A DNA stretch of 64,000 nt from an uncultured Muribaculaceae bacterium (GCA_964619545.1 CAZUED010000003.1:163-64162); one strand, 5' to 3'. Shown: positions 1-52,411, counted from the stretch's first letter. Numbers and translations are program-made. The notes: generated by a model from the letters alone, not told the origin.

Positions 1-124
1 TTCGTTCTGGTGATTATTGAGCACCAGCCACCCTCTGATCCATTCCGAACCAGACAGGGAAACGATGTATCGCCGATGGTACTTTGGCTTAAGCCACGGA
101 AGAGTAGGTCGTCGCCAGAACGAA
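1..124 (+). rRNA. rrf: 5S rRNA (near-complete; 5' end at or just before the window edge)
   Basis: Helix I pairs 1-12 (ttcgttctggtg) with 113-124 (cgccagaacgaa). Internal motifs ccgaacc, gaaacg and cgccgatggtact match bacterial 5S consensus. Confidence 0.8.
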
Positions 125-160: not shown

Positions 161-187
161 CCGCCCCATTTTTGGGGCGTTTTTTTA
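161..187 (+). terminator. Rho-independent terminator after the rRNA operon
   Basis: ccgcccca/tggggcg hairpin followed by a T-run. Confidence 0.6.
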
Positions 188-418
188 TCCGATGTCATTC
201 CTATCACAATAGTTATAAATTTTAGTTATAATTTTTACATGGTTCAAAATAATCCGGACTTAAATTTTCCAAATTATACGGCACAGAATATGCCGCCAAA
301 AAATCCATGTGAAACCTGTTTGTTTTGGGGAATCACATGTAATCAATTAATATGCTCGAATTTCCAAAAATATAAAGAAGATACGAAAAAATTTGCGCTG
401 AGCAATGAAATTTCTCCC

Positions 419-447
419 TTTAACAATTTATATTGATGTGATATAAT
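419..447 (+). promoter_or_regulatory. Sigma70-like promoter for the first Cys-rich secreted protein gene
   Basis: TTTAAC, 17-nt spacer, TATAAT. The predicted TSS (~454) falls just downstream of the ATG at 451, which argues for the ATG at 475 as the real start. Confidence 0.45.
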
Positions 448-474
448 CAGATGAAAGTAGAGAAGGGGTTTTTT

Positions 475-2439
475 ATGAAAAGCCGGTTTTTAGCGTATTT
501 TGTGTTCGCATTTAGCGCTGTTTTTGTATTGCCTGGGGCGGCTGATCCAATTGCTGGATATGGCCAGACTGCGCCTGTTGCAACAACAAGCGCAACACAA
601 TCTCCGCGTGCAACAGGTCAGCGCGGCGGTCGTGCGACCCCCAGCCCCACTGCGGCAGCCAAAGTTGGCGCAACACAATCAGCGTCGCGTAGTGTGTCAT
701 CAAGAAGCGTTGGTGCGCGTGCAACCGCAACATCTGCGCAAAATATAGTTTCGCGTGGCACCAGTTCGCGTACAACAAGCAGTCGCGCGGTACGCGCTCG
801 TACAGCAAGTTCAGCAACAACGGCCAGGGTTTCGCTGACCGGTACCGCAATTCGCGGCAGCAGCACTTCGACCACAACACTTGCTAACAAGCTTTATACC
901 GGGACATATTCTAATATTATTGATCCTACAACCGGTTTAATTTCAGCAGATGCCTACAGCAACTGTCTTGAATCTTATTATGCTTGCATGGATGAAATTT
1001 GTACGGCGCGTAATCCAGGACAACGTCGTTGCGCGTGCGCCGGTCGAGTAAAAACTTTTGCTAATGTAGAAGCGCAATTGCAGACAGCACGTGAAGATTT
1101 ATTAAAAGTTTCGGGACAATTGTCATTATTAATCCTTACCAAGGGCAAGGATGTTACGTCTGCATTTACTTTGACCGAGTCAGAAAAAGTTTTGAATTGC
1201 GTTTCTTGGCGTGATGCCAAAACCGCTGGAAAGACCGATGAATGGTGCGAAAGTCATACCATGCTGTCTGGCACAACAAGTTGCACCAGCTATTCTGGGC
1301 CACCGGCGTTTGTAGCGGAATACTGCTCTAGTAACGATTTTGTTCTGGGTGGATCCGATTGGATGAATGTCTTGAATGGGGCGGATTCTGATATACTTTC
1401 CAGCTTGGAAACCTATGCCAGCACGATAAACCAAGTCAATGTTATTACCACAGATAACACAAACAGCTTGTTCAGTTCATTCATGAATGTCAGCGATATA
1501 GTTGGACAGCTGGACGGCACCGGGAATTTGTTCAGTTCAACAGAAACGGCGCCCGATACTTTGGCCCAGCTGTGGGGGTATAACTTGTTCCAGTACGCCC
1601 ATAACAATGTTTGCAATCGTGTTCTGAATTCTTGCTTTAACGGAATTTATGAAGCATGCGGAAGCAATAACGGAACAACTGGTCCATATAATTATAACAA
1701 TACAATAACTGTTAACAATGATGGATCGGACTTGAATTTTGTTGTTCCAGGATCGTCTTCTTCAACCAGCACGAATACAGCAACTTGCTTTGGTTATACA
1801 AGCAGCAGTGGCGATCCATATTCAACGTTGCGCCGGCCAGTGGCGGATTCGCGCCGCAGCATTTTGCAAAAGTATGCACTGGACGCAAATGCTGATTGCG
1901 ATACGTATGGTGAAGAGTTGAAAAAGCAAGCGACAAATATGGCATATCAAAAGATAGCCGCGACTCAGTACCTGCAGCAAAAGCGTCTTGAATTCGCAAA
2001 TGAAGATGAAACAAATACAACTGCTGAATTAGTTGCTGCCAAAGAGTCTTATCGCAGTTGCGTCAGCGAGGTTTATGATTGCTATGACCAACAGACACGG
2101 ACTAATCCAACCTGGACTGCGGCACGTGTAAAGAACTATTGCTCGCAAAGCGCGGAAGTTCCCAGCTGCTATGAAACGATGGTATGTGATCAAGAAGTTG
2201 GTCGTTTGATTGATGTCGCAGACAGCATAACATGCACAAGTACCCAAGATTGGGCAGCGAACACTTGCCGCAATGTTGTCAGATTGTCAGAAATCTTGAA
2301 TGGCACGGGCGCGGCAGCGGTTTCGACTGGTGCGAACTCGGCAGGTTTGCGCGAGTACTGCTTGCAAAGCACCCCAGGTGTATATGGCGAAGGCAGTATA
2401 CGTGATTTTGGCACCGGCTGGGGTCCAGGAAGTTTATAA
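475..2439 (+). CDS. Large secreted Cys-rich protein, paralog 1. It has a signal peptide, a Ser/Thr/Ala/Arg-rich low-complexity region and a Cys-rich C-terminal region
   Basis: Track ORF 451..2439; start moved to M9, which sits after GAAGGGG and in front of a hydrophobic signal (MKSRFLAYFVFAFSAVFVLPGAA). Shares the motif C-x6-C-M-D-x2-C-x8-R-C-x-C with the next gene. Confidence 0.75.
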   Translation: MKSRFLAYFVFAFSAVFVLPGAADPIAGYGQTAPVATTSATQSPRATGQRGGRATPSPTAAAKVGATQSASRSVSSRSVGARATATSAQNIVSRGTSSRTTSSRAVRARTASSATTARVSLTGTAIRGSSTSTTTLANKLYTGTYSNIIDPTTGLISADAYSNCLESYYACMDEICTARNPGQRRCACAGRVKTFANVEAQLQTAREDLLKVSGQLSLLILTKGKDVTSAFTLTESEKVLNCVSWRDAKTAGKTDEWCESHTMLSGTTSCTSYSGPPAFVAEYCSSNDFVLGGSDWMNVLNGADSDILSSLETYASTINQVNVITTDNTNSLFSSFMNVSDIVGQLDGTGNLFSSTETAPDTLAQLWGYNLFQYAHNNVCNRVLNSCFNGIYEACGSNNGTTGPYNYNNTITVNNDGSDLNFVVPGSSSSTSTNTATCFGYTSSSGDPYSTLRRPVADSRRSILQKYALDANADCDTYGEELKKQATNMAYQKIAATQYLQQKRLEFANEDETNTTAELVAAKESYRSCVSEVYDCYDQQTRTNPTWTAARVKNYCSQSAEVPSCYETMVCDQEVGRLIDVADSITCTSTQDWAANTCRNVVRLSEILNGTGAAAVSTGANSAGLREYCLQSTPGVYGEGSIRDFGTGWGPGSL

Positions 2440-2460
2440 AGCACAAGGCGTAGATAATAA

Positions 2461-4704
2461 ATGAATAAAAATTCCAGATTTTGCAAAAAGTTTGGTGCAT
2501 GTTTATCTATGCCTTATGCTGTTTTTTTGATGTTCTGCATGGGTATAGCTGATGCAGCTGAAGTAAGTCGTGCACTTCCCGGAAAACAAGTTGCTATTTC
2601 AACGACATTCCAAAATCAGATACAATCCGAAGATGAAGTACCGGTGATAGAGCCCGGACAAGTTTCTGTACCCATATCGGTTTCACGTACGGCAGCATTG
2701 CCTGCACAAAGAAGTCAAAATGAAATAAGATCACGCACAGCGGCGACAGCTGTTCCACGCGATGCACTGAATGAAGCTGCGCGCCAAGTTGGACGCAGCG
2801 CCAAGGCCGAGGCAGCAAGTATGAATGCAACGGCACCAGTTCGTCGTGCGGGGATTTCTTTACGTCCGACAGCTGCCGAGGTTGGCGGCCGTGCAGCAGT
2901 TGTTACAGCTGGTACAACTACAGCTTCAAGTGTCAGCGCGGCAAGTCGTAGATTAACTTCACGTGCTGCAACTACAGGTCCCGATACAGCTGGGATTGAC
3001 GATACAATAGCTGTGACGGAATCATGCCAAGCGCAATATACCGACTGCATGGATCAGTTCTGCGCTGTCATTGATGCCAACCAAAAAAGATGCAGCTGCA
3101 GTAATCGTCTTTCTTCTTATTCGCGTGTAGAAACATCTGTAAAAGAAGCAAACAATCAGCTGAATGACGTCGCACAACGCATACGCTATGTGGGATTGTC
3201 TGCGGATGAAATTAGTGCGATTATGAGCGCGACCGAGGCTGAGATTGCATTACAAAATACCCGTGATACAACAGAATCACGGAATATGCTGGATGAAATT
3301 GAAAATCTTATTCGTTCGCCGGAAAATGTTGTTGCGCAAAGTTCTTCATCAACGATTGATTTGGACTTGAGTTTTGATGCAGAGGCTGATCCCATGGAGT
3401 TGTTTAATCTTTCCGGATCATCAACAGGGTCATTTTCTAATTTGCGTGGAACGGATTTGCTAAATGCCGCAAAAAAACGTTGCCAATCTGTGCTGACATC
3501 ATGCAAAGCCAAAGGTGCAAACGTCAATCAAATTACAGGTCGGTATGAAATAGAGATAGATAAAGACTGCATAACATATGAAAAAGGTCTGGAAAAGATG
3601 AATCAGACCTTGCGCACAAATGTTCGCAGTGCAACACAAATGTTGCAAAAGGCAAGACTTGCTGTGCTTGAAAATCATAACTCTTACGACGCCAAGGGTT
3701 GTGTTGGTGCTTTGGAACAATGCATGCACGACGAAATGGTTTGCGGAAGCGACTATTCTAAATGCCTTGATCCGACTAAACGCTTTATAGACGAAAGCGG
3801 AAAAGTAGTTTTGGGTCAAAATATTTCCATGATAAGAAACATTATGGCGAATTTTGATAATTCTATAATAGACGAGTCGTTTATAGGTTCAGCATGGGCA
3901 ATGTCGGGAATGTCTGGTTGTGATCAGGCACCAAATAATAATGGCAAATGCATTGTGAAGTATTTGTTGGGAAAAATCGGAATGGGCGAAGATAGCAGCT
4001 CTGGTTTGTGTCGCCCGGTTTTAGACAAGTGTCAAAAACAAACGTATGATGGCCGCGGCAAATATAATCCGAAAAACGCAATAGTCGTGGGCTATATACA
4101 GCGCGCAATGACTAATATTCGTGCTGCCCAGGAAAATATAATTTCAGATTACGCATCGACATGTATGGCGGAAATTGCAACTTGCTATTCCAAGCAGGTT
4201 ACGCAAATCAATGCATGGTCATCAAATGCCAACGTTCAGAATGTGTATTCAGTTCTGAAAGGCGCATGTCGTAATGTTGCACTGACATGCAGCTATGCGG
4301 TTTTCTCGGCCGACCAAACTGTGAATGGTTGCCCAATAACCAGCAATGATATGGCTGGAACCGATGGTGATAGGCAAAGCAAATGTATAGAAAACATTTC
4401 GGATATATTCTATCAATCAATGTTGTGTCCAGATTATTCGACATGGGTCCCGGCACAGACAGGTGCTATCGCAGGCACTATGTATCCTTATTCGCCCGAT
4501 ACACCGATCAGAGTGCATGTTAACGAGCGCTGTGTATGCCAATCAGGATATGGCGTAAATGCGGGTAGTTGTGAACAATGCCCGACCGGATACGCATTCA
4601 ATGCAAATTGCACTTATGCCAGTGCATCCCAAGGTTGTCCGATTATAGGATGCGGTTGCCCAGCGGGTACGACTTGGAATACGACTGCATCTGCGTGCCA
4701 ATAA
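2461..4704 (+). CDS. Large secreted Cys-rich protein, paralog 2, with an EGF/furin-like Cys-rich C-terminus
   Basis: 747-aa ORF with an N-terminal hydrophobic signal and an Arg/Ser/Thr/Ala-rich region. It has the same CxxYxxCMDxxC...RCxC core as paralog 1. The C-terminal end reads CVCQSGYG...CEQCPTGY...CPIIGCGCPAG. Confidence 0.75.
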   Translation: MNKNSRFCKKFGACLSMPYAVFLMFCMGIADAAEVSRALPGKQVAISTTFQNQIQSEDEVPVIEPGQVSVPISVSRTAALPAQRSQNEIRSRTAATAVPRDALNEAARQVGRSAKAEAASMNATAPVRRAGISLRPTAAEVGGRAAVVTAGTTTASSVSAASRRLTSRAATTGPDTAGIDDTIAVTESCQAQYTDCMDQFCAVIDANQKRCSCSNRLSSYSRVETSVKEANNQLNDVAQRIRYVGLSADEISAIMSATEAEIALQNTRDTTESRNMLDEIENLIRSPENVVAQSSSSTIDLDLSFDAEADPMELFNLSGSSTGSFSNLRGTDLLNAAKKRCQSVLTSCKAKGANVNQITGRYEIEIDKDCITYEKGLEKMNQTLRTNVRSATQMLQKARLAVLENHNSYDAKGCVGALEQCMHDEMVCGSDYSKCLDPTKRFIDESGKVVLGQNISMIRNIMANFDNSIIDESFIGSAWAMSGMSGCDQAPNNNGKCIVKYLLGKIGMGEDSSSGLCRPVLDKCQKQTYDGRGKYNPKNAIVVGYIQRAMTNIRAAQENIISDYASTCMAEIATCYSKQVTQINAWSSNANVQNVYSVLKGACRNVALTCSYAVFSADQTVNGCPITSNDMAGTDGDRQSKCIENISDIFYQSMLCPDYSTWVPAQTGAIAGTMYPYSPDTPIRVHVNERCVCQSGYGVNAGSCEQCPTGYAFNANCTYASASQGCPIIGCGCPAGTTWNTTASACQ

Positions 4705-4763
4705 AACCCTTGAAAATCGTGTGGTATTTGCTATGCTTTTCCTATTAAAAGGAAGAAAGCATA

Positions 4764-6308
4764 ATGAGTCAAGCATACGCCGTTCTGGCGCGAAAATACC
4801 GCAGTCAAGATTTTGCCAGTCTGATTGGACAGGACGTTCTTGTTAAAACCCTTACTACAGCAATCAATACAGACCGAATCGCGCATGCGTATATTTTTAC
4901 GGGCATTCGTGGAACTGGGAAAACCAGCACCGCTCGCATTCTGGCCAAGGCGCTGAATTGTTTAAGCGCAAATAAAGCAACCGCTGCCCCATGTGGTGTA
5001 TGTGAAAATTGCAAAGCGATTGCTGCCGGTCAGCATATTGATGTTTTGGAAATTGACGCAGCATCGCACACTGGTGTTGATAATATGCGCGACATTTTGG
5101 ATGCAGCCCAGTATCGTCCAACTAATGGCAGATACAAGGTTTACATTATCGACGAAGTGCATATGCTTTCAACCAGTGCATTTAATGCATTATTAAAAAC
5201 TCTGGAAGAGCCGCCCGAGCATGTTATTTTTATTCTGGCGACGACAGAAATACGAAAAGTTCCTGTAACTATTCTTTCCAGATGCCAACGATTTGATCTT
5301 GTACGTGTTTCAGTCGAAACACTTAAGAAACATTTTGCTTGGATTGCCCAGTCGGAAAAAGTGAATTTGACAGATGGTGCAAACGAATTGTTGTCGCGTG
5401 CAGCAGATGGTTCAGTTCGTGATGGTCTGTCTTTATTGGATCAAGCAATTGCGCAAACAGGCGGCAATGTGGATGAGGCTGCAGTGCTGTCCATGTTAAA
5501 ACGCGCGGACCGCGGCGTGGTCGTTGATTTTATGCAGACATTACTGTCGGGCGATGTTGCGGCCGCAATAGACAAGGCGGACTCTTTGTATGCTAATGGC
5601 GCGGATTTATCAATGTTGCTTACTGACATGATGGAATGGACGCACTGGGCGACTCGTATGCACCCCAGCTTGCATGCAGGTGATGCAGCTGCAATTCCAT
5701 ATACGGCTGATCAAAAAGAACAAATAAGAAAAATTAACGAAACGACTAGCCTGAATACTTTGTCGCGCATATGGCAAGTAATGGTTGCCAGTGTACCTGA
5801 AATGCAGACTGCTGGGAATCAAAAGCAATGCTTTGATATGCTGGTTGTTCGTTTAATGCGTGTTGCTGATATGCCGCCCATCAACGAATTAGTAAAGCAA
5901 ACAGCAACGTCTGCACCCCAAGCAAAACAGCAGATACATAAAGTTCCAGCAAAAGACAATGCATTTATAAAAATTTCAACGCCAATTGAACTTTCTGGCG
6001 CCCTTTCTGATGCCAAAGAACCTTTGTTAATGACTCATTGGGCAAATAATGTAGAGGTTGCAGAATTTTCAGATGGGCAAATTAAGTTTTTTGATCGTAA
6101 TGATGATCGTGATTTCCCTACAAAATTGCGTGATTTTTTACGTACCAAAACCGGCAAAGAATGGATTTTGGAAAAGATAGAACCAGAGCAGAAAAATCAG
6201 CCCATGCAAACCCCGACCGAGGCACAGCGCGCAGAACTTGAAGCCGATCCTGTGGTTGCAAACGCGCTGGATTTATTTGCTGGTGCCGAAATTATTTCGG
6301 TAAAATAA
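4764..6308 (+). CDS. dnaX: DNA polymerase III subunit tau/gamma
   Basis: Walker A (GIRGTGKTS), the clamp-loader Zn motif (CGVCENC) and SRC and DEVH motifs. Confidence 0.95.
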   Translation: MSQAYAVLARKYRSQDFASLIGQDVLVKTLTTAINTDRIAHAYIFTGIRGTGKTSTARILAKALNCLSANKATAAPCGVCENCKAIAAGQHIDVLEIDAASHTGVDNMRDILDAAQYRPTNGRYKVYIIDEVHMLSTSAFNALLKTLEEPPEHVIFILATTEIRKVPVTILSRCQRFDLVRVSVETLKKHFAWIAQSEKVNLTDGANELLSRAADGSVRDGLSLLDQAIAQTGGNVDEAAVLSMLKRADRGVVVDFMQTLLSGDVAAAIDKADSLYANGADLSMLLTDMMEWTHWATRMHPSLHAGDAAAIPYTADQKEQIRKINETTSLNTLSRIWQVMVASVPEMQTAGNQKQCFDMLVVRLMRVADMPPINELVKQTATSAPQAKQQIHKVPAKDNAFIKISTPIELSGALSDAKEPLLMTHWANNVEVAEFSDGQIKFFDRNDDRDFPTKLRDFLRTKTGKEWILEKIEPEQKNQPMQTPTEAQRAELEADPVVANALDLFAGAEIISVK

Positions 6309-6318: not shown

Positions 6319-6777
6319 ATGAGAGAGCAATGCGGACGCAGCCTGATTGAAATGCTTGGAGTGCTGGCCATCGCAGGTGTTATGACCGCTGGTGCAATTG
6401 CTATGTATAACATTGTGCGCACCCGACAGATTCGGATGGTGGCGACCCAAGATATGAAAACAATCGCAAATAATACAAAGCTGTTGTATGCCGCGCGCCG
6501 TGATTATACCGGCATATCCGCAGATTATTTGGTTAAGGCTGGCGCAATGCGCAATGAAAAATCTCCTTTGGCTGGCGCTCAGTTTTCTATTTCTGCAAGT
6601 CCAGGCCCCAAGGAATTCGCAATGGTTTTTGCAGAATTAAATTTTAATGATTGCTCTTGGCTTGCGACGCAGAATTTTGATTGGGCGGACAGAATTAGTG
6701 TGAATGGGTATTTTGAGTCCGCATCGACTTATTGTCGTCAGATGGATAAAAATGAAGTTGCGGTTTGGGTGAAATAA
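6319..6777 (+). CDS. Type IV pilin-like / pseudopilin protein (prepilin-type N-terminus)
   Basis: G|RSLIEMLGVLAIAGVMTAG fits the class III signal, with Glu at +5 and a hydrophobic helix. There is a C-terminal Cys pair. Confidence 0.55.
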   Translation: MREQCGRSLIEMLGVLAIAGVMTAGAIAMYNIVRTRQIRMVATQDMKTIANNTKLLYAARRDYTGISADYLVKAGAMRNEKSPLAGAQFSISASPGPKEFAMVFAELNFNDCSWLATQNFDWADRISVNGYFESASTYCRQMDKNEVAVWVK

Positions 6778-8273: not shown

Positions 8274-8403
8274 AATAGTTCTGAATTAAATCGCCGCAAT
8301 CGCGGCGATTTTTTTAATATAAAAATGTTTTGTAAAAAACTTTGATTTTGTTGATTTTGCCTTTCTACTTTTGCCTTTTGTTTTTTTGTGTTATAATTCA
8401 CCT

Positions 8404-9147
8404 ATGAAAAAGTTTTTTGCTTCATTGTTTGTTATTAGTTTTTCATTGCTGTTCATGGCGCCTGTGCGTGCATCAGATGCCCCGGATTTCAAGATTTACG
8501 AAGACGTTTCCATAAATAATCAGCCAAAATCCATGCCAGAAATAGAGGAATTATTTCTTAATCCCCGTGCCCAGACAGAAAATCTTTGGGCTGCCGGAAA
8601 AAATTCAATGTTAGAAATTTCTTATACTGGTTGCCCATTTCATACAATTCGTGAATGCCTGATTTGGAAGCGTAAACCAGTAATAATGGAAACAATCCCA
8701 TTGCCAACGCGGCATATTAAAAAAACTGATGATTATCAAACCGCATTGGTAAAAAGGTACGAGGCTCTGATGCAGGCAGCCAGATCTTGTTGCACTGCCG
8801 GCATGGAGAACAAGTTGATAAATTCTGGCGCATCCGCTGGTTTGATTTATAAATTTATGGTTGATGATGCAAACTTTTACGGATTTGGGGATAGATGCTT
8901 GATGATAACAGATGAAGAACTGCAAGAAAACTATTCTGGGACTGCAACCGCAAGGGCGGTGATGGGTGTTCGTGATACATGCCTGTGTCAGCGGCGGGAT
9001 TATTTTGATGCACTACTGGCGCCATTTGACGATTTTCCAGACGAAGAGTATAATTATACTTATCAAGATGGATTGAAGCGCGAGGTAAATGTTTCAATCA
9101 GCAATGATGTACGTGCAGTCAAAGAAATTTTGACACGCTGCCTATAA
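8404..9147 (+). CDS. Secreted Cys-containing hypothetical protein inserted between skp and lpxD
   Basis: Track ORF 8371..9147; the signal peptide starts at M12 (MKKFFASLFVISFSLLFMAPVRA). Ten Cys residues. Confidence 0.55.
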   Translation: MKKFFASLFVISFSLLFMAPVRASDAPDFKIYEDVSINNQPKSMPEIEELFLNPRAQTENLWAAGKNSMLEISYTGCPFHTIRECLIWKRKPVIMETIPLPTRHIKKTDDYQTALVKRYEALMQAARSCCTAGMENKLINSGASAGLIYKFMVDDANFYGFGDRCLMITDEELQENYSGTATARAVMGVRDTCLCQRRDYFDALLAPFDDFPDEEYNYTYQDGLKREVNVSISNDVRAVKEILTRCL

Positions 9148-11790: not shown

Positions 11791-13938
11791 TTATCTATCT
11801 TGACCGATTTTGGTAGATGTTCCGGATTTCAGGTTGTCATTGGCTATACGAAGTTGTACTTGGTATGCGTTTATACAATCTGTCATACTGGAATTAGTCA
11901 TAGAATCGCCACATTTTTCAAATTGAGATTCAGATAATTTCAATGTTGTTGACATTCCTTTCAGCAAGTCAGAATCAAATTTAAGCTGCTTTCTGGCATC
12001 TGTTTTATTTGATGCGGAACGTATTACGCTCAAGTTGTTATTCAAGCAAGAAATCATATCTGATGTGCTGTAAACCTCATTACAATCACGAGCACCATTT
12101 AATCTTACATTACCTTTAGAAGATTTGCTTGCACTAGTAGAAGAATCATCAGTAGTATCGCCGCCAGCGGCCTGTAATTTTGATACCAGAATGGATTTCT
12201 CCATCTGAGTCTTTAACCGCTTCATAGTAACGTCCAAAAAGTCATACTGACGTTTCATCTGTTGAGTAATAATTGTCGTTTTCAATGCGATTGTATCCGC
12301 CATCATTTGTTTGTCAGCGGCCGAGGTTGGATTTTTTGTACTTCCAATGTTATAAGCATGGGTGCTGCACAAAGCGATGGCTGAATTGATATAATCATTT
12401 CCGCTGTCTTCTTTGCACCCGTTATCAGCTGTGCCAATGGAAAGAATTGCGTCCAGATTGTTGTTTTTGACACACAGATTGCGATCTGGCAAACGTCTTA
12501 GCTGTGCCAAATTACTTATAACAGCTAACTGATCAGAATTTGTTGCACACCATTTTATTGCGTCGGCTGCAGATTCTTCGCCGCGAATTACACTTGGTGC
12601 GTCCTGGGCAATTATTCTGCGCAAAGTTTCTATATCAATCGTCGATTGCTTTTTGCGATTTTTAAATAACACGGAATTATCAATTGCGTCAGATGCACAT
12701 GCAACGCGAATCCCGCCAGAACTGCCCGCATCCATATCCAGCCAGTTTTGTTGAATGTCCTCTTGATTATTTAACATCTTTAACAAAGTGCAATGGGGCT
12801 GTTGAGATTTTACTCGGCGGTTCCCCTGAGCATCATTTTCGTATGCTATAGGCCAGTATCCGCGGCCGGTTTTTGTATCATAATCGCAAGTTATGCTTGT
12901 CTTATCATCAATTTTTTCAGTTTGATTTTGAGAACATGTCTCGCACATATATTGCCCCCAGACATTGCAAGAGCCATTCAGCATCATGTAAATATCTGTT
13001 ATATCAACGCCCAAAGATTGCGCTAAAACCAACGCATCATACAACTCGTCCAAAACTGCATCATACGGATCAAAGAATTTATTTGCCTTATCCTTGAACG
13101 CTTTGACTCGCCGAGGACCCTGGCAATTATTTCCATTAGAATCACAACGCGCATAATCAAAAACATTTTGCATTGTGTTTTTTAAATCTTTCATCGCAAC
13201 ATCAGAATTTTCAAGCTGGGTCAGTATTTGACCACCAATTTGTTCGCGTGCCAAAACATCTGCCGATACACCCGCATTGACTGCATTAGTAATTGTTTTA
13301 TCGGGTGCTGATGCGCTTGCTGCTTGGGCCGCGGCCTGTGCTTGCTGGGCCGCCAGTTGTTTTTGCTCTTCCAATGCTTGCTGAACAGCCGCGGCGGATT
13401 GAGCAGATTGTTCTTGCATCTGTTGCTGCATCTGCATCATCTGCGCTTGCATTTGTTCTATCTGAGTGTTTGATTGCGCCGCTGCTGCATTTGCAGCCTG
13501 CGTTGTTGCAGCATTTTGCGCCTCGGTTGCTTTTGCAATAGCGGCACTTACCATCTGTGCCGCCAATGTTTGGATTAAATCGTCACCATATTGCTCGCAC
13601 GAAGGATTACTTTTCACGCAACCTTTCACAATCGGAAGCGCCAATTCCATGGTTGTGCAGCCCGCGCACTTTGGCTGGGCGCAACGCAAAATAAGTGAAT
13701 TACAATTTCCAAAATCTGCAACCGGCCTTTGTTGCCCCAGTGGATTAGGGTTTATCGCGGCATTCCACTGATTGTTGTTCAATGCGCCGGCACTGCCGGT
13801 AAATACAGTTCTGTTACCTGAAATTCCGCCAGAATTTGCAAAAGAAGGCCCTGGTCCGCCGATAGGACTGTCGCCATAGGCAGTCCCCAGTGCAAAGCAG
13901 GCGGTACAAACAGATAAAAATCTGATTAAAATCTTCAT
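11791..13938 (-). CDS. Large secreted Cys-rich protein, paralog 3. It has a signal peptide, a Gln/Ala-rich coiled region and many Cys residues
   Basis: Track ORF 11791..13998; start moved to M21 (MKILIRFLSVCTACFALGTAYG). The motif C-x6-C-x4-C-x2-C resembles paralogs 1 and 2. Lies 67 nt downstream of virB10. Confidence 0.7.
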   Translation of the reverse strand: MKILIRFLSVCTACFALGTAYGDSPIGGPGPSFANSGGISGNRTVFTGSAGALNNNQWNAAINPNPLGQQRPVADFGNCNSLILRCAQPKCAGCTTMELALPIVKGCVKSNPSCEQYGDDLIQTLAAQMVSAAIAKATEAQNAATTQAANAAAAQSNTQIEQMQAQMMQMQQQMQEQSAQSAAAVQQALEEQKQLAAQQAQAAAQAASASAPDKTITNAVNAGVSADVLAREQIGGQILTQLENSDVAMKDLKNTMQNVFDYARCDSNGNNCQGPRRVKAFKDKANKFFDPYDAVLDELYDALVLAQSLGVDITDIYMMLNGSCNVWGQYMCETCSQNQTEKIDDKTSITCDYDTKTGRGYWPIAYENDAQGNRRVKSQQPHCTLLKMLNNQEDIQQNWLDMDAGSSGGIRVACASDAIDNSVLFKNRKKQSTIDIETLRRIIAQDAPSVIRGEESAADAIKWCATNSDQLAVISNLAQLRRLPDRNLCVKNNNLDAILSIGTADNGCKEDSGNDYINSAIALCSTHAYNIGSTKNPTSAADKQMMADTIALKTTIITQQMKRQYDFLDVTMKRLKTQMEKSILVSKLQAAGGDTTDDSSTSASKSSKGNVRLNGARDCNEVYSTSDMISCLNNNLSVIRSASNKTDARKQLKFDSDLLKGMSTTLKLSESQFEKCGDSMTNSSMTDCINAYQVQLRIANDNLKSGTSTKIGQDR

Positions 13939-14005
13939 ATTCTCTCTTGAAGCAAGTTTATCATAAAATGCGAGGAAATGCAAGCCTCCCTTTAACAAGT
14001 GGAAG

Positions 14006-16300
14006 CTAAATTATTGGGGGAAAGCAATCACCGCCAGCTGCTGGACAGCAGTTGAATCCTTGGCTACCCATGTCTGTATAAACCTCGCCCGTGCAACAGC
14101 CGTTTAAGTCTGGCGATGTACCATCTTCGCAGGTCAGTGCCGTCGTGGTGGTGGTTGCGGGTGGTGTTTCTTTGGCAAATGGATTTTTTATTGTACCGTC
14201 CGCATTGTATTGCAGGCCCAAAACTTGCTCGTTATATTCTTTTGTTCCCTTAGTTAATTGCTGGCCATTGGTTCCGACAATACCGGTTTGCTGCTGGTTA
14301 TTCCAAATAGCCTGCTGTTGGGCATTATTTATCGCTTGATACTGAATTGCTTTACAATATGCAACAACGGTACGATAGTCATAGCCAGCCTCGGAAATAG
14401 TTTGTGCTGTTACACCCGCACTCAGCTGTCCATTAGTGCCGCAGTATTTCTGTATATCAAATCCGCGAACTTGTCCAACCCATGATGCATCATCATAATT
14501 TGGTATGGCTTCGGACGCTTTATGAGAAACATATTGCGAAGGAGTCAAATTGCAATTTTCAAGCCCATTCACCTTGTCGCAGAAGTTCACAATTAAATCC
14601 TTTGGCGAATAAACCGTTATGCGCGTACCAGCGGCAATAGAAAATGGAGGAACCGTGTTGTCCAGCATATCAACCATTAATTTTTGCGCAACTCTGTTCC
14701 ATGTTGAAATAATTTCATTTTTTGCCAGCTCGGACGAGCGAACTTGACCACTTTGTGTAACCGTATTGTTATCCAGATCAATTTGATTTACGAACTTGTC
14801 TGAAATTGGCGCAATCAAATTAACAGCGGCAGGCACAACTGCCGTTATCATCGGCATTATGAATTGCTCCATATAATCTGTGCTGCCGTGACCTGGAACG
14901 CCAACGCGACCTTGGCTGTCGCCAGCAAAGGGCTCGTCCCCGGCAAAGCTGAATTCAACTCCGTCCGGTCTAACAAAGCGATACCATTTGATTTGCATAC
15001 GACCGATGGCTTTATACGGACCCGGCATTTCACCAGTCAAATAACCCAACATCAATGTTCCGGTCGGAATTATTATAGTGCGTCCGTTATCAGAATAGAC
15101 ATGTCTATCAACTGTTGCCTGAACTGGCAACATGGATTGACGCTCTATCTTTGCATCTGCACGTATTTCATTTACGATTGTCGCAGGAATAGGCTTGTAC
15201 TGGCGCAGAACAAAAGTGCGGTCATAGGGCTCGGTCGATATAAATGCATCGCCCGCAGATGAAGGTACCAGGTTACTTTCTGGTTTATATGCAAATGCTG
15301 GATTTATCTCTGACAAACGTTTTGCACCACCCGCAGCTCTGGGTAATTCTGCCGCTGCTGCATTTACTTGTCTTGCTCGATTTTGTACGCGTGCGTTCGC
15401 CGGATTGGACAATACAGGAACATTCGCGCTTGATGCAATAAATCCGATTCGATCAAAGTCAGAGCCTATTTTTCTGCTGGGATTTTTAAGATCGGTAATA
15501 AATCCGGTATCCAAATTATATTCACCCAGTGGGCTGGTGCAGTCCAAGTCAGAAAAAGGATGAAAAAGATAATGTCCACCTTGGGGACGTATCCATCCGA
15601 TTTGCTTTCCATATGCGTCATAGCCGCCGAATGCAAATTCATAGCAGCGCTCGGTATTTAATGCTGCTGTAGTTACTGGCGCAGGCAAATTTTCTGTTGC
15701 AAATTTTGGCGCAAGGGTTTCGACCGCCTCGGCCACAGGATTAATTTCAGGGGCAGTCAAAACAGGTTCTGGTTCTGGCAATTGCACTGGTTTTTGTGGT
15801 TCTACTTTTTTTGTAGATAAAGCAACAGGAATTTCAGCAGTTTGTGCCATTTTGGCCTCGGCACTGGCGGGGTAATACTCAATAAGTACTTTAATGCCGG
15901 TTGGTTCCAAGTCTGCAGCAGGCGTCCAAGTTAATTCTGCACTGCAAGGAATGCCAAGTGTAATTTCGCCCATATTTGTACAGGTGGTATCTATGCTTAA
16001 TCCATCAATTTTTTGGGATAGTTTTACGCTGGGAATCATTGCGACTGCATTCGAAGAAATTTTAATAGTCTGTGTCTGTTTTTCGCCAACTGGAATGTTT
16101 TGCCATGCGATCTCAGATGGATCCATGGTCAGCTCCAGAACTGGTTTTGATTCGGACTTTGGTTTATCCTTGGAATCGCGACCCATCAGAATAACCAGCA
16201 AAACAACGACTACCAAAAAAGCAGCGAACATCACGATCCACAGCACATGCCGTGGCATGGACTTTTTTACATCGCTGATAGTGGTTGTTATCATCGCCAA
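14006..16300 (-). CDS. virB10: Type IV secretion protein VirB10/TrbI-like with a long C-terminal extension
   Basis: N-terminal TM segment, a Pro-rich region and a TrbI-type domain (...VDRHVYSDNGRTIIIPTGTLMLG...). This is followed by a Q/N-rich stretch, a TTTTT linker and a tail with 6 Cys. Confidence 0.88.
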   Translation of the reverse strand: MAMITTTISDVKKSMPRHVLWIVMFAAFLVVVVLLVILMGRDSKDKPKSESKPVLELTMDPSEIAWQNIPVGEKQTQTIKISSNAVAMIPSVKLSQKIDGLSIDTTCTNMGEITLGIPCSAELTWTPAADLEPTGIKVLIEYYPASAEAKMAQTAEIPVALSTKKVEPQKPVQLPEPEPVLTAPEINPVAEAVETLAPKFATENLPAPVTTAALNTERCYEFAFGGYDAYGKQIGWIRPQGGHYLFHPFSDLDCTSPLGEYNLDTGFITDLKNPSRKIGSDFDRIGFIASSANVPVLSNPANARVQNRARQVNAAAAELPRAAGGAKRLSEINPAFAYKPESNLVPSSAGDAFISTEPYDRTFVLRQYKPIPATIVNEIRADAKIERQSMLPVQATVDRHVYSDNGRTIIIPTGTLMLGYLTGEMPGPYKAIGRMQIKWYRFVRPDGVEFSFAGDEPFAGDSQGRVGVPGHGSTDYMEQFIMPMITAVVPAAVNLIAPISDKFVNQIDLDNNTVTQSGQVRSSELAKNEIISTWNRVAQKLMVDMLDNTVPPFSIAAGTRITVYSPKDLIVNFCDKVNGLENCNLTPSQYVSHKASEAIPNYDDASWVGQVRGFDIQKYCGTNGQLSAGVTAQTISEAGYDYRTVVAYCKAIQYQAINNAQQQAIWNNQQQTGIVGTNGQQLTKGTKEYNEQVLGLQYNADGTIKNPFAKETPPATTTTTALTCEDGTSPDLNGCCTGEVYTDMGSQGFNCCPAAGGDCFPPII

Positions 16301-16321
16301 CGCAGACTCCTGAGCCTTTTA

Positions 16322-17797
16322 TTATTGAACTCTTACTACATTGCAAGCGGTCCCTTGGAACTTTGTCATTTTATCACAAAGCTTTTGTGCGCTTTCAATG
16401 TCCGACATGGGCCCAATACGCAGGCGATAAAGCCGCGCGGTTGCAGCGCCCGTACCCAGATCTCCAACTCCAGACTCGTCAACTGCGAAATAAACCATAT
16501 TACGATAAGGATTCAGCAGTCCTTGTCCATCATCACCACTGAATTTCGCCAGCAGCTTTGTCCAATAATCATTCAGTGCTTTGACAGAAGTATCGGATTT
16601 CAGCTCAACAGCGACACCTGCTTGATTAGAGGTTATAATTGGAATGTCGCTTTGCGGCAGGAACGAGCCCGCAGTATTGCGAACACTTGGCAGCATATTA
16701 ACGCCAGTCGCACCAGTTGATGCGCCATTTGTCGGCATTACCATCGGCGGTTGAAATCCATTAACCTGTTGGTCAGTGATTGGCTGCAACATTGCACCAG
16801 AATCAACCGGCATATTTCCATAACCAACATTTTGCAAGGATTGTGATGATTGCATGCTTTGCATAACGTTAGATTCAGCCAGTGCCATGACGCTGGAAGT
16901 GTCAGCAATCAAGAAGGGTTTTGCGCGACGCTTGATACAAACAATTCGCTGACCACTGCGCAATACCATATCCCCAACTGCTTCTACAATCAACAGGCGT
17001 CCGTTTTCACCATCAGTACGAAAACCGACTGGCGATTCACCACCTTCGACCAAGATAGAAACAACTGGTCTTTGAGTCATTGCGATAACCTTGTCGCCAA
17101 AATCAATATAGGTAAAGATTCTGTCGCGCCATACGCGTTCAGGCGCAATTACAAAGTCATCAGGATTCGGGACAAAAATGTCTAAATCAAAGCGGAACTC
17201 TGACGGATCAATTTTCATTGTTTTTATCCAGCCGTAATCTTCGCCGTCAACGCCCAAGGTAGAAGTTGAATTTTTCTTTGGGAAAATAGAGTTCATACCA
17301 GAAGTTTGACCAGCAGAAGAGCTGGTTGCATTTGGTATGCTAGAACGCCCATCCAGAACAACATCAACCTGGGAATAAGAAATTTCGCTGGAATTAGCAG
17401 GTTCGGAACGCAGATAGAATAAATATTTATTTCCTGATTTGCCAGTAATAATCAAATTTGTGTCGCTGCCCTGATTTGTTGCAACCGGTGTCATATAAAT
17501 TGTTCTGCCACCTTTTTGCGGATCCATTTGGAACAAACCTTCGTTACCAATGACGCCATCTTCGATAATTTCGCCTTCGGGCAAATTTATCATGGTTACC
17601 ATTCCATTACGCAAACGAATCGGAAGAACTGCGCCTGGCGCCCATGTCAGTTGGGCAAAGCCAGGTTTAGAACTGCCTGTGGCCATATTTGCCTCTGGGT
17701 TATCCCACGCATCCTGGACACCATAATCTTCGGCACTTGCCCCGCCAATACAAAAGGCAAAAATCAAAGGGCAAAGAGCAAATAATTTTATATTCAT
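16322..17797 (-). CDS. virB9: Type IV secretion protein VirB9-like with a C-terminal SPOR-like extension
   Basis: Signal peptide, and N- and C-terminal domains similar to VirB9/TrbG. About 190 extra residues end in a putative SPOR fold. Confidence 0.82.
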   Translation of the reverse strand: MNIKLFALCPLIFAFCIGGASAEDYGVQDAWDNPEANMATGSSKPGFAQLTWAPGAVLPIRLRNGMVTMINLPEGEIIEDGVIGNEGLFQMDPQKGGRTIYMTPVATNQGSDTNLIITGKSGNKYLFYLRSEPANSSEISYSQVDVVLDGRSSIPNATSSSAGQTSGMNSIFPKKNSTSTLGVDGEDYGWIKTMKIDPSEFRFDLDIFVPNPDDFVIAPERVWRDRIFTYIDFGDKVIAMTQRPVVSILVEGGESPVGFRTDGENGRLLIVEAVGDMVLRSGQRIVCIKRRAKPFLIADTSSVMALAESNVMQSMQSSQSLQNVGYGNMPVDSGAMLQPITDQQVNGFQPPMVMPTNGASTGATGVNMLPSVRNTAGSFLPQSDIPIITSNQAGVAVELKSDTSVKALNDYWTKLLAKFSGDDGQGLLNPYRNMVYFAVDESGVGDLGTGAATARLYRLRIGPMSDIESAQKLCDKMTKFQGTACNVVRVQ

Positions 17798-17876
17798 TTC
17801 ACATCCTTCCTAATTTTTTTCTCAAGCGAATTCAGCTGTGACATTTGCCACTTGCCGTTTGCTATTTAAGTTTATG

Positions 17877-18530
17877 CTATTGCATAAAATCGAGCGGATC
17901 ACTTCCCCCTGATTCCACCCGGTATTCCGAGACTTGCAGCCCCAGCGGATTTTCCTGTCTGTTGCCCCATTTCAATTCTGGCGTGTAGGTCAATCCTATT
18001 ACAATAGTAAAATCTTTTGGCGGGGTATGTCCAGCGCTTTCTGATGTGCAAAACCATCTGAATTTTACAGCGAATTTATCACTTCCGCGTGGCTCAATTG
18101 CGGGCGATTGAAACTCTACAGGGCACGAAAACTGAACGTTCGGAGAATCCTGCATGAAAGCAGACCATAACTGAGTTGTTGCAAATCTGGCATAAACCTC
18201 TCTAGATGACCAGATATAAACTGGGCCGTCTGGGCTGCGCCACTTGTACCGCATGGTATTTACATTGGGTGTTATTTCGTTGCGCGCGCGAATATATTCC
18301 TTGATGAAGCTTTCCTTGTAATCGATCATAGTTTTGTTATTTACTGGCAGTTGTTGAATTTCGATTATTTGACCCTCGACACGGCGCGCATTCAGCAAGA
18401 AAACCTGGGTCCTATTCAATGGGAACATGTTAGAGACTGCGAAAATCATGGCCAAAGCAGTTGCAATTGCTGCGGCCAGCACGAAAGACATCATGCGCGC
18501 GGTAAAAGCATTGGGTGTGACAACTGCCAT
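17877..18530 (-). CDS. virB8: Type IV secretion protein VirB8-like
   Basis: N-terminal TM segment, a periplasmic domain and the NPLG motif (NPLGLQVSEYRV). Confidence 0.78.
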   Translation of the reverse strand: MAVVTPNAFTARMMSFVLAAAIATALAMIFAVSNMFPLNRTQVFLLNARRVEGQIIEIQQLPVNNKTMIDYKESFIKEYIRARNEITPNVNTMRYKWRSPDGPVYIWSSREVYARFATTQLWSAFMQDSPNVQFSCPVEFQSPAIEPRGSDKFAVKFRWFCTSESAGHTPPKDFTIVIGLTYTPELKWGNRQENPLGLQVSEYRVESGGSDPLDFMQ

Positions 18531-18611
18531 TTTCTTCAGAATTCTCCCTTCTTTGCGCGATTGTAGTAAATTTCCAGATTACTATGCAAGGGAAAAGTTC
18601 AATTTTCAATT

Positions 18612-18720
18612 ATCAAAGTGCAATTAACGTGTTCGCTGCGCTCACAATTAAATAATTATAAAAGCATCGGTGAATGCCGACACCACAATTGCTAATTGAA
18701 TTTTGTACATTGCACATTAA
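18612..18720. repeat. MITE-like element, copy B (inverted relative to copy A)
   Basis: caaagtgcaatt...gccgacaccacaattgc aligns to the reverse complement of 11097-11205. Confidence 0.7.
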
Positions 18721-18729
18721 ACTTTTCCC

Positions 18730-18758
18730 TTGCCTTAAAAAAACTAATAGGGTAGAAT
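18730..18758 (+). promoter_or_regulatory. Sigma70-like promoter for the tRNA-Trp-secE-nusG unit
   Basis: TTGCCT, 17-nt spacer, TAGAAT. Confidence 0.45.
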
Positions 18759-18873
18759 ACTTTTCGCTTGATTTTGGTAATAAATGTGTTATTGTGCGCG
18801 AACGAAAATAAGATAAACTGGGGTGGAGTTCGCACGATTCCTGCGGTGCAGGCGCGTGGCAGACAAGAGTTTT

Positions 18874-18947
18874 AGGGGCATAGTTCAACGGTAGAATAGA
18901 GGTCTCCAAAACCTTTGGTGTGGGTTCGATTCCTACTGCCCCTGCCA
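18874..18947 (+). tRNA. tRNA-Trp (CCA)
   Basis: Cloverleaf folded by hand. The anticodon loop is CTCCAAA, the T-loop is TTCGATT, and CCA is encoded. Confidence 0.9.
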
Positions 18948-19018
18948 AAAAGCTTTTGTGATGGGTATAAAAATGTCCACCAAAAGCCAAGCGACCAGTT
19001 AAAAAGTTTGGAACACGT

Positions 19019-19198
19019 ATGAAGAAATTTCTTGATTACATCAAAGCAGTTCGCCAGGAATGGTTTAAAATTGTGTGGCCATCACGCGATGCGGTTATTC
19101 GCGCGACCATAATGATTTTGGTGTTTTCAGGACTTGCAGCGCTGTTCTTTTTTATCACCGATAGTGCATTGAATGCGCTGGTGGAGTGGATTTTTTAG
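19019..19198 (+). CDS. secE: Preprotein translocase subunit SecE (59 aa; below the track's size cutoff)
   Basis: Translation MKKFLDYIKAVRQEWFKIVWPSRDAVIRATIMILVFSGLAALFFFITDSALNALVEWIF. The position between tRNA-Trp and nusG is the conserved one. Confidence 0.8.
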   Translation: MKKFLDYIKAVRQEWFKIVWPSRDAVIRATIMILVFSGLAALFFFITDSALNALVEWIF

Positions 19199-19241
19199 AA
19201 AATGTGCAATCTGCACATAAAACGAATTGAGTGGAGCAATT

Positions 19242-19763
19242 ATGAATTGGTATGTCGTGAATGTTCATACAGGATGCGAGGATAAAGTAGCGCGTGAATT
19301 GCGTGAGCAAATCAATACGCGAAAATTAAATCCTTTATTCGGCGAGATACTGGTACCAACTCGCGAAGTATCCGAGGTAAAGGGCGGCAAACGCGTAAAA
19401 ACGGAAAGAAAATTTTTCCCTGGATATATCGTTGTTCAAATGCAAATGACTAACGAGACTTTTTCGTTGGTAAAGTTGCACCCTCAGGTTGTTATGTTCT
19501 TGGGACAAAAGCAAAAACCTGTAGCGATAACAGAGGATGAAGCCCGCCGTCTGATGAAACAGATGGAAGAGGGTTCGGCAAGTTTGGACGAGTCTGAATA
19601 CGAAGTCGGTCAAGAAATTCACATTATTGATGGTCCATTCATGAACTTTAACGGAATTGCCGCCGAGGTTGATAATTTGAAACAGAAAATGGTTGTGAAC
19701 GTTTTAGTGTTCGGCCGTGAAACCAGCGTCAGCTTAGACTTTAACCAGGTGGAAAAAGTTTAG
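19242..19763 (+). CDS. nusG: Transcription antiterminator NusG
   Basis: NGN and KOW domains. The ATG at 19242 follows GGAG; the track start at 19227 is a TTG. Confidence 0.95.
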   Translation: MNWYVVNVHTGCEDKVARELREQINTRKLNPLFGEILVPTREVSEVKGGKRVKTERKFFPGYIVVQMQMTNETFSLVKLHPQVVMFLGQKQKPVAITEDEARRLMKQMEEGSASLDESEYEVGQEIHIIDGPFMNFNGIAAEVDNLKQKMVVNVLVFGRETSVSLDFNQVEKV

Positions 19764-19896
19764 TTAAATCGAGTGGTTTAATTATAGGGATTTTTATGGT
19801 TTAGGAATGTTCTGAAAACCATATCCTGGAAACGGGAAATAAACGCGGAAGCAGTAGCCACTGCGCACCGCAAACTCTAAAACAACGGAGAAAAAA

Positions 19897-20328
19897 ATGG
19901 CAAAGAAAGAGTTCAAGGGGCTGGTAAAGCTTGTTGCCCCTGCAAAACAGGCGAACCCATCGCCTCCGATTGGCCCAATTTTGGGCGCTAACGGCGTTAA
20001 CATCGCCGAATTCTGCAAACAATTTAATGATGCAACCAAGGACATGGAAGCAGGTATGCCTGTTCCAGTCATTATTACTGTTTATACTGACCGCAGTTTC
20101 GAATTTATTATGAAATTGCCACCAGTGTCGTACTTTATTAAAAAGGCGTTGAAATTGAAATCTGGTTCTAAAAAGCCAGGTCGTGATTTTGTCGGAACTT
20201 TATCAATGGCCGAAGTTCGCAAAATTGCCGAAGGTAAAATGCCAGACTTGAATTGCTCTACCATTGATGCGGCCGCAAAAATCGTTGCCGGACAATGCCG
20301 TTCTATGGGCGTAAAGGTGGAGGAATAA
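19897..20328 (+). CDS. rplK: 50S ribosomal protein L11
   Basis: L11 motifs (PPIGPILG). Confidence 0.95.
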   Translation: MAKKEFKGLVKLVAPAKQANPSPPIGPILGANGVNIAEFCKQFNDATKDMEAGMPVPVIITVYTDRSFEFIMKLPPVSYFIKKALKLKSGSKKPGRDFVGTLSMAEVRKIAEGKMPDLNCSTIDAAAKIVAGQCRSMGVKVEE

Positions 20329-20331
20329 GAT

Positions 20332-21003: not shown

Positions 21004-21174
21004 AGAATTCTTGTCCAAGACTGATGGGGGAGAAATCCTTAAAAAAATAACCCCTCAATAGACAAAAGAGATGAATACTCTTTTGGGACAGAATGAAAGG
21101 GTGGAAAAATCCACCCTCCAAAAGAGCCCCAATCGAAAGATTGGAAAAAAGAAACGAAAGCAAAAGGATAAAGC
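21004..21174 (+). promoter_or_regulatory. rplJ leader, a possible L10(L12)4 autoregulatory structure
   Basis: Structured 170-nt leader (gggtggaaaaatccaccc hairpin) between rplA and rplJ. The autoregulatory role is inferred by analogy to E. coli. Confidence 0.3.
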
Positions 21175-21651: not shown

Positions 21652-21669
21652 AATCAAAAGGAAACTAAA

Positions 21670-48704: not shown

Positions 48705-48819
48705 CCGAGTGGCATTTATAGATTCTGCAACTTTTTTTCAATCATCTGTAAGCACTAATGGCATAATTCATCCTTTGTAGTACAGGTCAATTATACTTTT
48801 AAATAATGAGTTTTCAATA

Positions 48820-49656: not shown

Positions 49657-49726
49657 GGGAAAATAAAAAAAACGCGCTATGCGCGTCTGTTTGATGCCTC
49701 AATTATATCAAATTTTTCATAAAAAA

Positions 49727-52388: not shown

Positions 52389-52411
52389 TAATTTGTAAAA
52401 TAGAGAGAGAA

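Follow-up and report, generated by a model that had tools for sequence, protein, structure and literature searches.

A tandem pair of paralogous, predicted secreted cysteine-rich proteins of Rs-D84-type gut Alphaproteobacteria, with a possible role as a surface scaffold

We describe two adjacent genes, here called A and B, near the start of a 64,000-nucleotide stretch of DNA (GCA_964619545.1 CAZUED010000003.1:163-64162; hereafter the window, with positions counted from its first letter) deposited under the name of an uncultured Muribaculaceae bacterium. The window opens with a 5S rRNA gene (Rfam RF00001, 66.5 bits, E=8.7e-12), followed by a strong intrinsic terminator with a 7-bp GC stem and a T run, which was located by a terminator scan and by reading the sequence. 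This arrangement fits the end of an rRNA operon, behind which the original prediction, made from the sequence alone, had placed the pair; the 5S gene and the terminator lie in the window, and the other rRNA genes would lie outside it. The features of the locus are as follows.

6..120, forward strand: 5S rRNA.
162..189, forward strand: intrinsic terminator of the rRNA operon.
420..447, forward strand: sigma-70-like promoter, TTAACA, 16 nt, TATAAT, with TG extension.
475..2439, forward strand: gene A, 654 aa; predicted signal peptide (aa 1-23), disordered cationic Ala/Ser/Thr/Arg tail (aa 24-143) and Cys-rich helical core (aa 144-654).
544..903, forward strand: disordered tail of A, with 13 Arg, 2 Lys and 1 acidic residue.
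964..1038, forward strand: signature of A, C164-x6-C171-M-D-E-I-C176 ... R-C186-A-C188, invariant in 40 homologs.
2461..4704, forward strand: gene B, 747 aa; predicted signal peptide (aa 1-32), disordered tail (aa 33-180), helical Cys-rich core (aa 181-655) and C-terminal module (aa 656-747).
2557..3000, forward strand: disordered tail of B (aa 33-180), 51% S+T+A+R, with 12 acidic residues.
3025..3099, forward strand: signature of B, C189-x6-C196-M-D-Q-F-C201 ... R-C211-S-C213, invariant in 55 homologs.
4426..4701, forward strand: variable Cys-rich C-terminal module of B, C-x-C-x2-G-Y ... C-x2-C-P-x-G-Y.

An AT-rich spacer of 230 nt separates the rRNA terminator from the promoter of gene A. 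The promoter, already noticed in the original prediction, matches the consensus at 11 of 12 positions and is the top-scoring site of a promoter scan in which promoter-like sites overall were not in excess of those in shuffled sequence (13 found, 9.6 expected). It probably drives both genes as a single transcript, because gene B starts only 21 nt past the stop codon of A and the terminator scan found no terminator in this gap. Gene A begins with an ATG behind a GAGAAGGGG Shine-Dalgarno sequence; its 654 residues are one fewer than had been given before, while the 747 residues given for B hold. An alternative in-frame ATG of A at 451 would yield 662 aa. For B, an internal ATG at 2509, used in two other assemblies, would yield 731 aa and leave the protein without a charged n-region. 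The next gene, dnaX, begins at 4764.

On the strength of sequence comparison, A and B are true paralogs with a common layout, as the first reading of the DNA had it. BLASTP aligns them with E=3e-12 and 26% identity over 219 aa covering the tail, the signature and the first helices, with a second high-scoring segment pair at E=1e-4. When hhalign sets a family profile of 55 B homologs against one of 40 A homologs, the match (98.2% probability, E=3.4e-14, 395 columns) pairs residues 183-650 of B with residues 158-608 of A, and thus spans the whole core. The common signature, C-x6-C-M-D-x2-C...R-C-x-C, is kept in every full-length homolog inspected, so that the shared cysteine motif reported for the two window proteins extends through both families.

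The cysteines of the cores are nearly invariant. Mature A carries 22, of which 21 are invariant, and mature B carries 32, of which 22 are invariant and 6 more at least 90% conserved; both numbers are even, and 12 cysteines are invariant across the two families together. Their spacing is far from random. B has 9 C-x6-C motifs where shuffles predict 1.38 (~6.5-fold; none of 5000 shuffles was as high, P<2e-4), and the mean of family B is 8.6; A has 3 where 0.73 would be expected (P=0.03). In the AlphaFold2 models (mean predicted local distance difference test score, pLDDT, 68.7 for B and 63.0 for A), residues 330-655 of B are confidently helical with pLDDT of 80-95, the core of A includes one ~90-residue helix, and the C-x6-C sites fall mostly within predicted helices. 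Cysteines at positions i and i+7 of such modelled helices would share one face, which is the geometry expected of helix-to-helix disulfide staples, and we consider it likely from these features that disulfides form in both A and B.

In front of the cores lie the signal peptides and the tails. Read by eye, the N-terminus of A runs MKSRFLAYFVFAFSAVFVLPGAA up to the putative cleavage point and DP beyond it, and that of B runs MNKNSRFCKK...CMGIADA up to the putative cleavage point and AEV beyond it. In both, a basic n-region leads into a hydrophobic h-region, the residues at -3 and -1 are small, and throughout family A the residues around the cleavage site (A23, D24 and P25) reach at least 90% conservation. 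These features and their conservation in the alignments speak for the signal peptides first proposed for the pair, and both proteins are likely to carry Sec-type signal peptides and to be extracytoplasmic.

The tails that follow are predicted to be disordered in both proteins (pLDDT ~30, AlphaFold2 given family alignments). They had been described as consisting almost entirely of S, T, A and R. This stands for A, in which these four residues make up 66% of aa 24-143, or 91% once G, V, Q, N and P are counted too, but is an overstatement for B, as the lower fraction and the acidic residues listed above make clear. The first half of the B tail is acidic or neutral and weakly conserved (30% identity), and its second half, aa 111-180, is 60% identical family-wide, with the consensus ...PAVRRAGxTLRPSTAEVGGRATI.... 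In the A tail R72, R94, R104, R109 and R118 are invariant among the 40 A homologs. Arginine prevails over lysine in the tail by 16 to 2-4, and Asp and Glu are nearly absent from the family A tail, giving it a net charge of about +14; the cores of A and B are net acidic. The order of residues is also biased. Across the family A tails the dipeptides SR (189 observed, 98 in shuffles) and RA (198 observed, 125 in shuffles) are enriched ~1.6-1.9x and RR is depleted (5 observed, 74 expected), which indicates that the arginines occur as single, spaced S-R-[A/T] units. The label 'RS-like' does not suit this pattern, since tandem RS dipeptides are absent and RS itself is near the shuffle expectation (108 against 99). 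The conserved composition, the invariant arginines and the biased dipeptide order mark the tail as a functional element rather than filler.

The C-terminus of B is the most variable part of the protein, and we regard this variability as the main functional clue. After the last core cysteine, homologs of B continue for 48-325 residues, with 38% identity in the C-terminus. The last 90 residues of the window B are modelled by AlphaFold2 as small beta hairpins with pLDDT of ~90. This end had been called EGF/furin-like, and its cysteine-rich character is evident, but the window protein itself has no Pfam match to Ephrin_rec_like (PF07699) at E<=1. Two B orthologs of ordinary length do match PF07699 at the same position, P0025 with 6e-11 and 42.4 bits and P0030 with 1.6e-5 and 25.0 bits (gathering cut-off, 23.1 bits), and in both the repeat coincides with the C-x-C..GY..C-x2-C-P-x-GY stretch of the window B. 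The module type, a mostly eukaryotic one, is thus present in the family but not demonstrable in the window B, because only the orthologs pass the cut-off, and the earlier label holds in part, by way of these orthologs. Of the 147 best representatives of the family, 58 reach 850 aa or more and 23 reach 1200 aa or more; the longest family member has 2338 aa and 121 Cys. The extra length is always C-terminal of the conserved tail and core and consists of arrays of Cys-rich modules. Of 33 long members scanned with Pfam, 6 show Listeria-Bacteroides repeats (PF09479) and 2 show Ephrin_rec_like.

No described family accommodates these proteins. Gene product A has no match at E<=1 in Pfam-A or NCBIfam. 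For B, Pfam-A returned only sub-threshold noise (Nsp1_C, 12.2 bits against a cut-off of 24.1) and NCBIfam two matches at ~13 bits against cut-offs of 211 and 644, likewise noise. Profile searches of PDB sequences with both family alignments gave no match, and Foldseek found no specific fold (best E=0.78), so that, in these databases, database hits to a well-known family, which might have given the pair a mundane explanation, did not appear. The A/B family is an uncharacterised, order-wide one without a Pfam model or a structural relative. Every test of A and B for homology to a described family was negative. The family is not surprising in kind, since orphan surface proteins are common in uncultured lineages.

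Relatives are numerous within a narrow range of organisms. Clustering at 90% identity leaves more than 1200 homolog clusters for A and more than 1000 for B, all unnamed, and homologs are typically 48-56% identical over almost their full length. Those sources that are named read 'MAG: Alphaproteobacteria bacterium' (MAG, metagenome-assembled genome) or 'Rickettsiales bacterium', and the metagenomes concerned are those of termites, the rumen, birds and the human gut. Among the GTDB species representatives, with one genome per species, 433 stretches encode relatives. Many of the best 80 of these 433 come from 'Candidatus Enterousia' MAGs, and two closed chromosomes, 717 and 959 kb long, are also among the 80. 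An exhaustive search of 1.84 billion representative proteins with a hidden Markov model returned just 598 clusters at the 50% identity level, and 207 of these have E<=1e-30; the family is real but lineage-restricted, given that so few clusters came from so many proteins. Enterousia falls in the GTDB order Rs-D84, an uncultured gut lineage with genomes below 1 Mb, no respiratory chain, few or no standard nutrient transporters and a suspected dependence on partners (PMC12306168), which is present in flagellate-free termites too (PMC11257099). The literature on Enterousia and Rs-D84 does not describe these proteins. We infer from the relatives that the window, too, comes from Rs-D84 or a lineage close to it. 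The suggestion of an intracellular bacterium is not upheld by these sources, which are gut, rumen and termite MAGs of Rs-D84/Enterousia, flagellate-free termites included. Several MAG records with these genes (L008, L009, L011, L025, L030, L045 and P0528) are likely mislabelled or mis-binned: their titles look wrong ('uncultured Muribaculaceae bacterium', 'Bacteroides fragilis', 'Lachnospiraceae bacterium'), and they include the closed 717-kb chromosome OZ246409.1.

The two genes travel together. Of the 63 species-level loci with at least 6 kb of sequence upstream of B, 43 have A in this upstream part and on the strand of B. A directly adjoins B, as in the window, in 9 loci, and most others of the 43 have 1-2.5 kb between the two; in the locus L004, they are parted by rplU-rpmA. 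The other neighbours of the pair differ among genomes (dnaX, PBP1a, PPDK, ribosomal genes), and because they vary, the conserved unit is the A...B pair and not a larger operon. Among diverged homologs the mean pairwise identity is 68-75% in the B core and 64-69% in the A core segments, compared with 30-39% in the first part of the tails. In comparable loci B diverges faster than PPDK (52% against 83%) and DnaX (65% against 79%), at about the rate of OmpA and the pilin-like neighbour. With a rate near that of OmpA and a conserved core, B behaves as an envelope protein and not as a hypervariable effector. The expectation of a family varying in copy number between strains, in the manner of effectors, is contradicted by genes that are single, order-wide and syntenic, with 64-75% core identity.

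Comparison with known systems yields analogies only. The chlamydial proteins OmcB and OmcA are, as A and B are predicted to be, Sec-exported Cys-rich envelope proteins found lineage-wide in reduced-genome, host-associated Gram-negative bacteria. OmcB has a basic N-terminal segment for glycosaminoglycan binding, which parallels the cationic tail of A and B. OmcB consists, however, of repeats rich in beta structure, while a helical structure is predicted for A and B; A and B have no Pfam match at E<=1 to the chlamydial cysteine-rich outer-membrane protein families, and peptidoglycan genes are present in the A/B lineage. The twin-CX9C or CHCH proteins of the mitochondrial intermembrane space recall the principle predicted for A and B, with cysteine pairs at a fixed spacing on one helix face that would be disulfide-bonded to a neighbouring helix; their spacing is 9 or 3 in ~10-kDa hairpins, as opposed to 6 in ~470-residue multi-helix cores, and A and B are bacterial, predicted to be Sec-exported and without detected homology to CHCH proteins. 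With Ephrin_rec_like domains (GCC2/GCC3, TNFR/furin-like) B shares the C-x-C..GY..C-x2-C-P-x-GY look and the hairpin prediction, although this module makes up only the last ~60 residues of B, its least conserved part. Modular adhesins, such as the carriers of PF09479, similarly join a conserved part to variable distal repeats, but in the A/B family the conserved part is N-terminal, helical and probably disulfide-rich, and there is no LPXTG motif, autotransporter barrel, or type I or type IX secretion signal. The SR/RS-domain proteins have only a Ser/Arg-rich disordered composition in common with the A/B tail, which has no tandem RS/SR arrays, contains Ala and Thr as abundantly as Ser, and belongs to exported bacterial proteins. 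By analogy, then, the nearest functional counterparts would be the chlamydial Cys-rich envelope proteins and the modular repeat adhesins, and the nearest structural one the twin-CX9C hairpins; none is homologous.

We tentatively propose, with a probability of roughly 0.4, that A and B form a disulfide-stapled cell-surface scaffold, held by its cationic tails and displaying variable adhesive modules. In this model A and B would be co-transcribed, exported through the Sec pathway and folded outside the cytoplasm, where their elongated alpha-helical cores would be stapled by many intramolecular disulfides, typically via C-x6-C pairs on one helix face. The two cores would then come together, probably in an A/B hetero-oligomer, and build a conserved scaffold in the envelope or on the surface of Rs-D84-type gut Alphaproteobacteria. 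The Arg-studded tail might tether this scaffold electrostatically to lipopolysaccharide or peptidoglycan, or perhaps to the acidic core of an adjacent subunit, and the outward C-terminus would carry the lineage-variable Cys-rich repeats that bind a partner cell or the gut surface. Disulfide formation, hetero-oligomerisation, surface exposure, anchoring by the tail and adhesion by the C-terminus are predicted parts of this model. We favour this scaffold because a conserved base, a paralogous partner and an exchangeable tip together follow the design logic of a modular adhesin. The many clusters, the 64-75% core identity and the OmpA-like rate speak for a structural rather than an effector role, and the 43 syntenic loci out of 63, together with cores that align end to end, for a partnership between A and B. 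The biological setting agrees with the model, in that Rs-D84 bacteria, with small genomes poor in transporters, are suspected to rely on a partner (PMC12306168). Of the host-interaction or surface role first suggested for these proteins, interaction at the surface or with a partner remains the best guess, and the intracellular setting is not supported.

A number of observations weigh against this proposal. Recognisable surface-type domains occur in the extensions of only 8 of the 33 long members, and in 18 of the 63 loci there is no A inside 10 kb of B. The sequences of A and B show neither a beta-barrel nor a lipobox, and no C-terminal sorting signal or other known signal for crossing the outer membrane can be seen in them; no type II or type V secretion system component is linked to them. 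An Arg-rich tail exposed in the gut would be very protease-sensitive, which argues for a periplasmic site for at least the tail. The gut lumen is reducing. Further, since the lineage reportedly lacks a respiratory chain (PMC12306168), the classical DsbA/DsbB-quinone pathway may be missing. With respect to oxidation, the window contains one further gene of interest.

36238..36744, forward strand: secreted glutaredoxin/thioredoxin-fold CPHC protein with a signal peptide and a hydrophobic C-terminal segment.

Its product is a candidate extracytoplasmic thiol-disulfide oxidoreductase and might serve as an oxidant for A and B. A bolder version of the scaffold model, to which we would give little credence at present, takes A and B as two subunits of a kind of surface structure not seen before, an order-wide, all-helical, disulfide-stapled coat or attachment organelle, anchored by Arg tails and decorated with exchangeable Cys-rich 'eukaryote-like' tips, by means of which these sub-1-Mb, transporter-poor bacteria would cling to the partner cell that sustains them. 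If such an organelle existed, it would imply a non-canonical oxidative folding pathway, because its owner is a fermentative anaerobe without a respiratory chain.

The missing export route is where the foremost rival account begins, according to which A and B remain on the periplasmic side of the outer membrane. The tails would bind peptidoglycan or inner-leaflet lipids, and the cores would form a periplasmic scaffold or cross-linked network stiffening the reduced-genome cell, analogous to the chlamydial Cys-rich complex. A Sec signal without a recognisable outer-membrane export signal or linked secretion system is what such proteins would have, their protease-sensitive Arg-rich tails would be protected there, and the almost invariant cysteines, the housekeeping-like conservation and the envelope and ribosomal genes in the neighbourhood (ompA, skp, lpxD, PBP1a, rplU-rpmA) agree with it as well. 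The 500-1600 extra C-terminal residues of the long members, however, are hard to fit into this arrangement, Cys-rich, Listeria-Bacteroides and ephrin-receptor-like modules being typically extracellular. A substitute for the sacculus also appears unneeded in a lineage that has PBP1a (computed here) as well as RodA and MrdA (PMC12306168), and the absence of any Pfam match leaves no similarity to OmcA/OmcB to build on. We therefore hold the periplasmic account to be unlikely, though worth keeping in mind.

Next to be considered is that A and B are released effectors or toxins directed against a eukaryotic host or a protist, delivered to the medium or to a host cell, with Cys-rich modules that mimic host ligands or receptors. 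Besides the Ephrin_rec_like/TNFR-like modules of the orthologs, it could draw on a run of type IV secretion system (T4SS) genes in the window (14006..18530).

14006..16300, reverse strand: VirB10/TrbI.
16322..17797, reverse strand: VirB9/CagX.
17877..18530, reverse strand: VirB8.

A precedent for such a route is pertussis toxin, which is Sec-exported, disulfide-bonded and released by a T4SS. The virB8-9-10 genes, however, lie 9 kb from A and B on the opposite strand and are absent near the pair in the loci L004 and L006, so that linkage is lacking in all three places. Typical effectors are patchy and fast-evolving, whereas the orthologs here are one-to-one, syntenic, order-wide and conserved. 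The lineage is at home in vertebrate guts as well as in flagellate-free termites, so no single host type comes into question as a target, and the Pfam, NCBIfam and PDB profile searches found no enzymatic or toxin domain. Taken together, these points make the effector account quite unlikely.

Still less probable is that A and B are accessories of a pilus or a secretion machine, for example the tip or stalk of a T4SS or of a type IV pilus-like fibre. The T4SS genes could again be invoked, and so could a prepilin-like gene 1.6 kb downstream of the pair that stays near B in 10 related loci.

6319..6777, forward strand: prepilin-like protein, 152 aa, directly after dnaX (N_methyl, E=1.3e-3, below the Pfam cut-off).

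In L006, moreover, three pilin-looking open reading frames (ORFs) of 419-486 aa at 1867..5889 precede the A-B pair, their N-termini being read by eye. Against this stand the neighbours of the pair, which change between genomes (dnaX, rplU-rpmA, PBP1a, PPDK) with no conserved linkage to an ATPase, secretin or VirB gene. The fold search found no likeness of A or B to VirB5, CagL or pilins, and Pfam no match to the VirB/Trb families. Lastly, mis-assembled repeats can yield low-complexity protein sequence, and an assembly error with collapsed repeats was named early on as what would undo the observation. Such an artefact, like a chimeric assembly or ORFs mimicked by non-coding DNA, is excluded by the lack of DNA tandem repeats in 400..4800, by independent assemblies of the same 4.4 kb from three other sequencing runs at 99.95-99.98% identity, and by thousands of full-length homologs with invariant residues.

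Several other genes of the window deserve mention.

8371..9147, forward strand: secreted ORF, 258 aa, 9 Cys, no family match, between skp (ompH) and lpxD.
11791..13998, reverse strand: third secreted Cys-rich ORF, 715-735 aa, 24 Cys, immediately downstream of virB10.
33077..34948, forward strand: B12-dependent (class II-like) ribonucleotide reductase, 19 Cys.
~48800..60200: T7-like/podovirus prophage or remnant, with a terminase RNaseH-like domain (48820..49656), a double helix-turn-helix repressor-like gene (51372..52388), Phage_capsid_2 (57189..58004, E=5e-69), a lysine/alanine-rich repeat protein (58312..58800) and a T7 capsid assembly protein (58877..59575).

The ORF at 11791..13998 starts with C-x6-C-x4-C-x2-C, continues with a Gln/Ala-rich coiled-coil stretch, and has ~1200 homolog clusters in the same lineage with no Pfam or NCBIfam match. 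The idea that this ORF is a distant paralog of A and B, through which their family would be connected with the T4SS, was rejected, hhalign giving a probability of 0.6-2.4% with a single sequence and with a 35-sequence profile. Judged by its sequence relatives it is a separate order-wide orphan family linked to the T4SS. In the same run VirB9 has a C-terminal match to the peptidoglycan-binding SPOR domain at 20.8 bits, just under the Pfam cut-off of 21, and a second weak VirB8-like gene (45583..46275) follows bamA, with two secreted or membrane ORFs without assigned function behind it. In L004, a distant relative, five paralogous ORFs of ~400-480 aa without Pfam matches lie near the B gene (15074..21674); at least some have hydrophobic N-termini by eye and are possibly VirB6-like. 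The secreted ORF at 8371..9147 sits inside an otherwise classical envelope gene row. The ribonucleotide reductase is of note in a genome group reported to be without nucleotide biosynthesis. As to the phage-derived region, a phage origin of A and B themselves is ruled out, no relative being present among 2.9 million viral contigs.

What has been defined here is an uncharacterised protein family of ~600 clusters at 50% identity, marked by the C-x6-C helix-staple motif and a disordered tail of spaced arginines. Its architecture is distinctive, and its putative role as surface scaffold or adhesin is plausible. Rs-D84 and Enterousia are widespread in the guts of humans, livestock, birds and termites, with genomes below 1 Mb that encode almost no biosynthesis or classical transporters. 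Being conserved, probably exported and Cys-rich, with variable modules predicted to bind, the A/B pair is a leading candidate for an attachment structure in these bacteria. It also raises a biochemical question, namely how an anaerobe without a respiratory chain oxidises the 11-60 disulfides predicted per protein. A and B thereby offer testable handles on an enigmatic gut group, as antigens for labelling and enrichment and as targets for metaproteomics and cryo-electron tomography.

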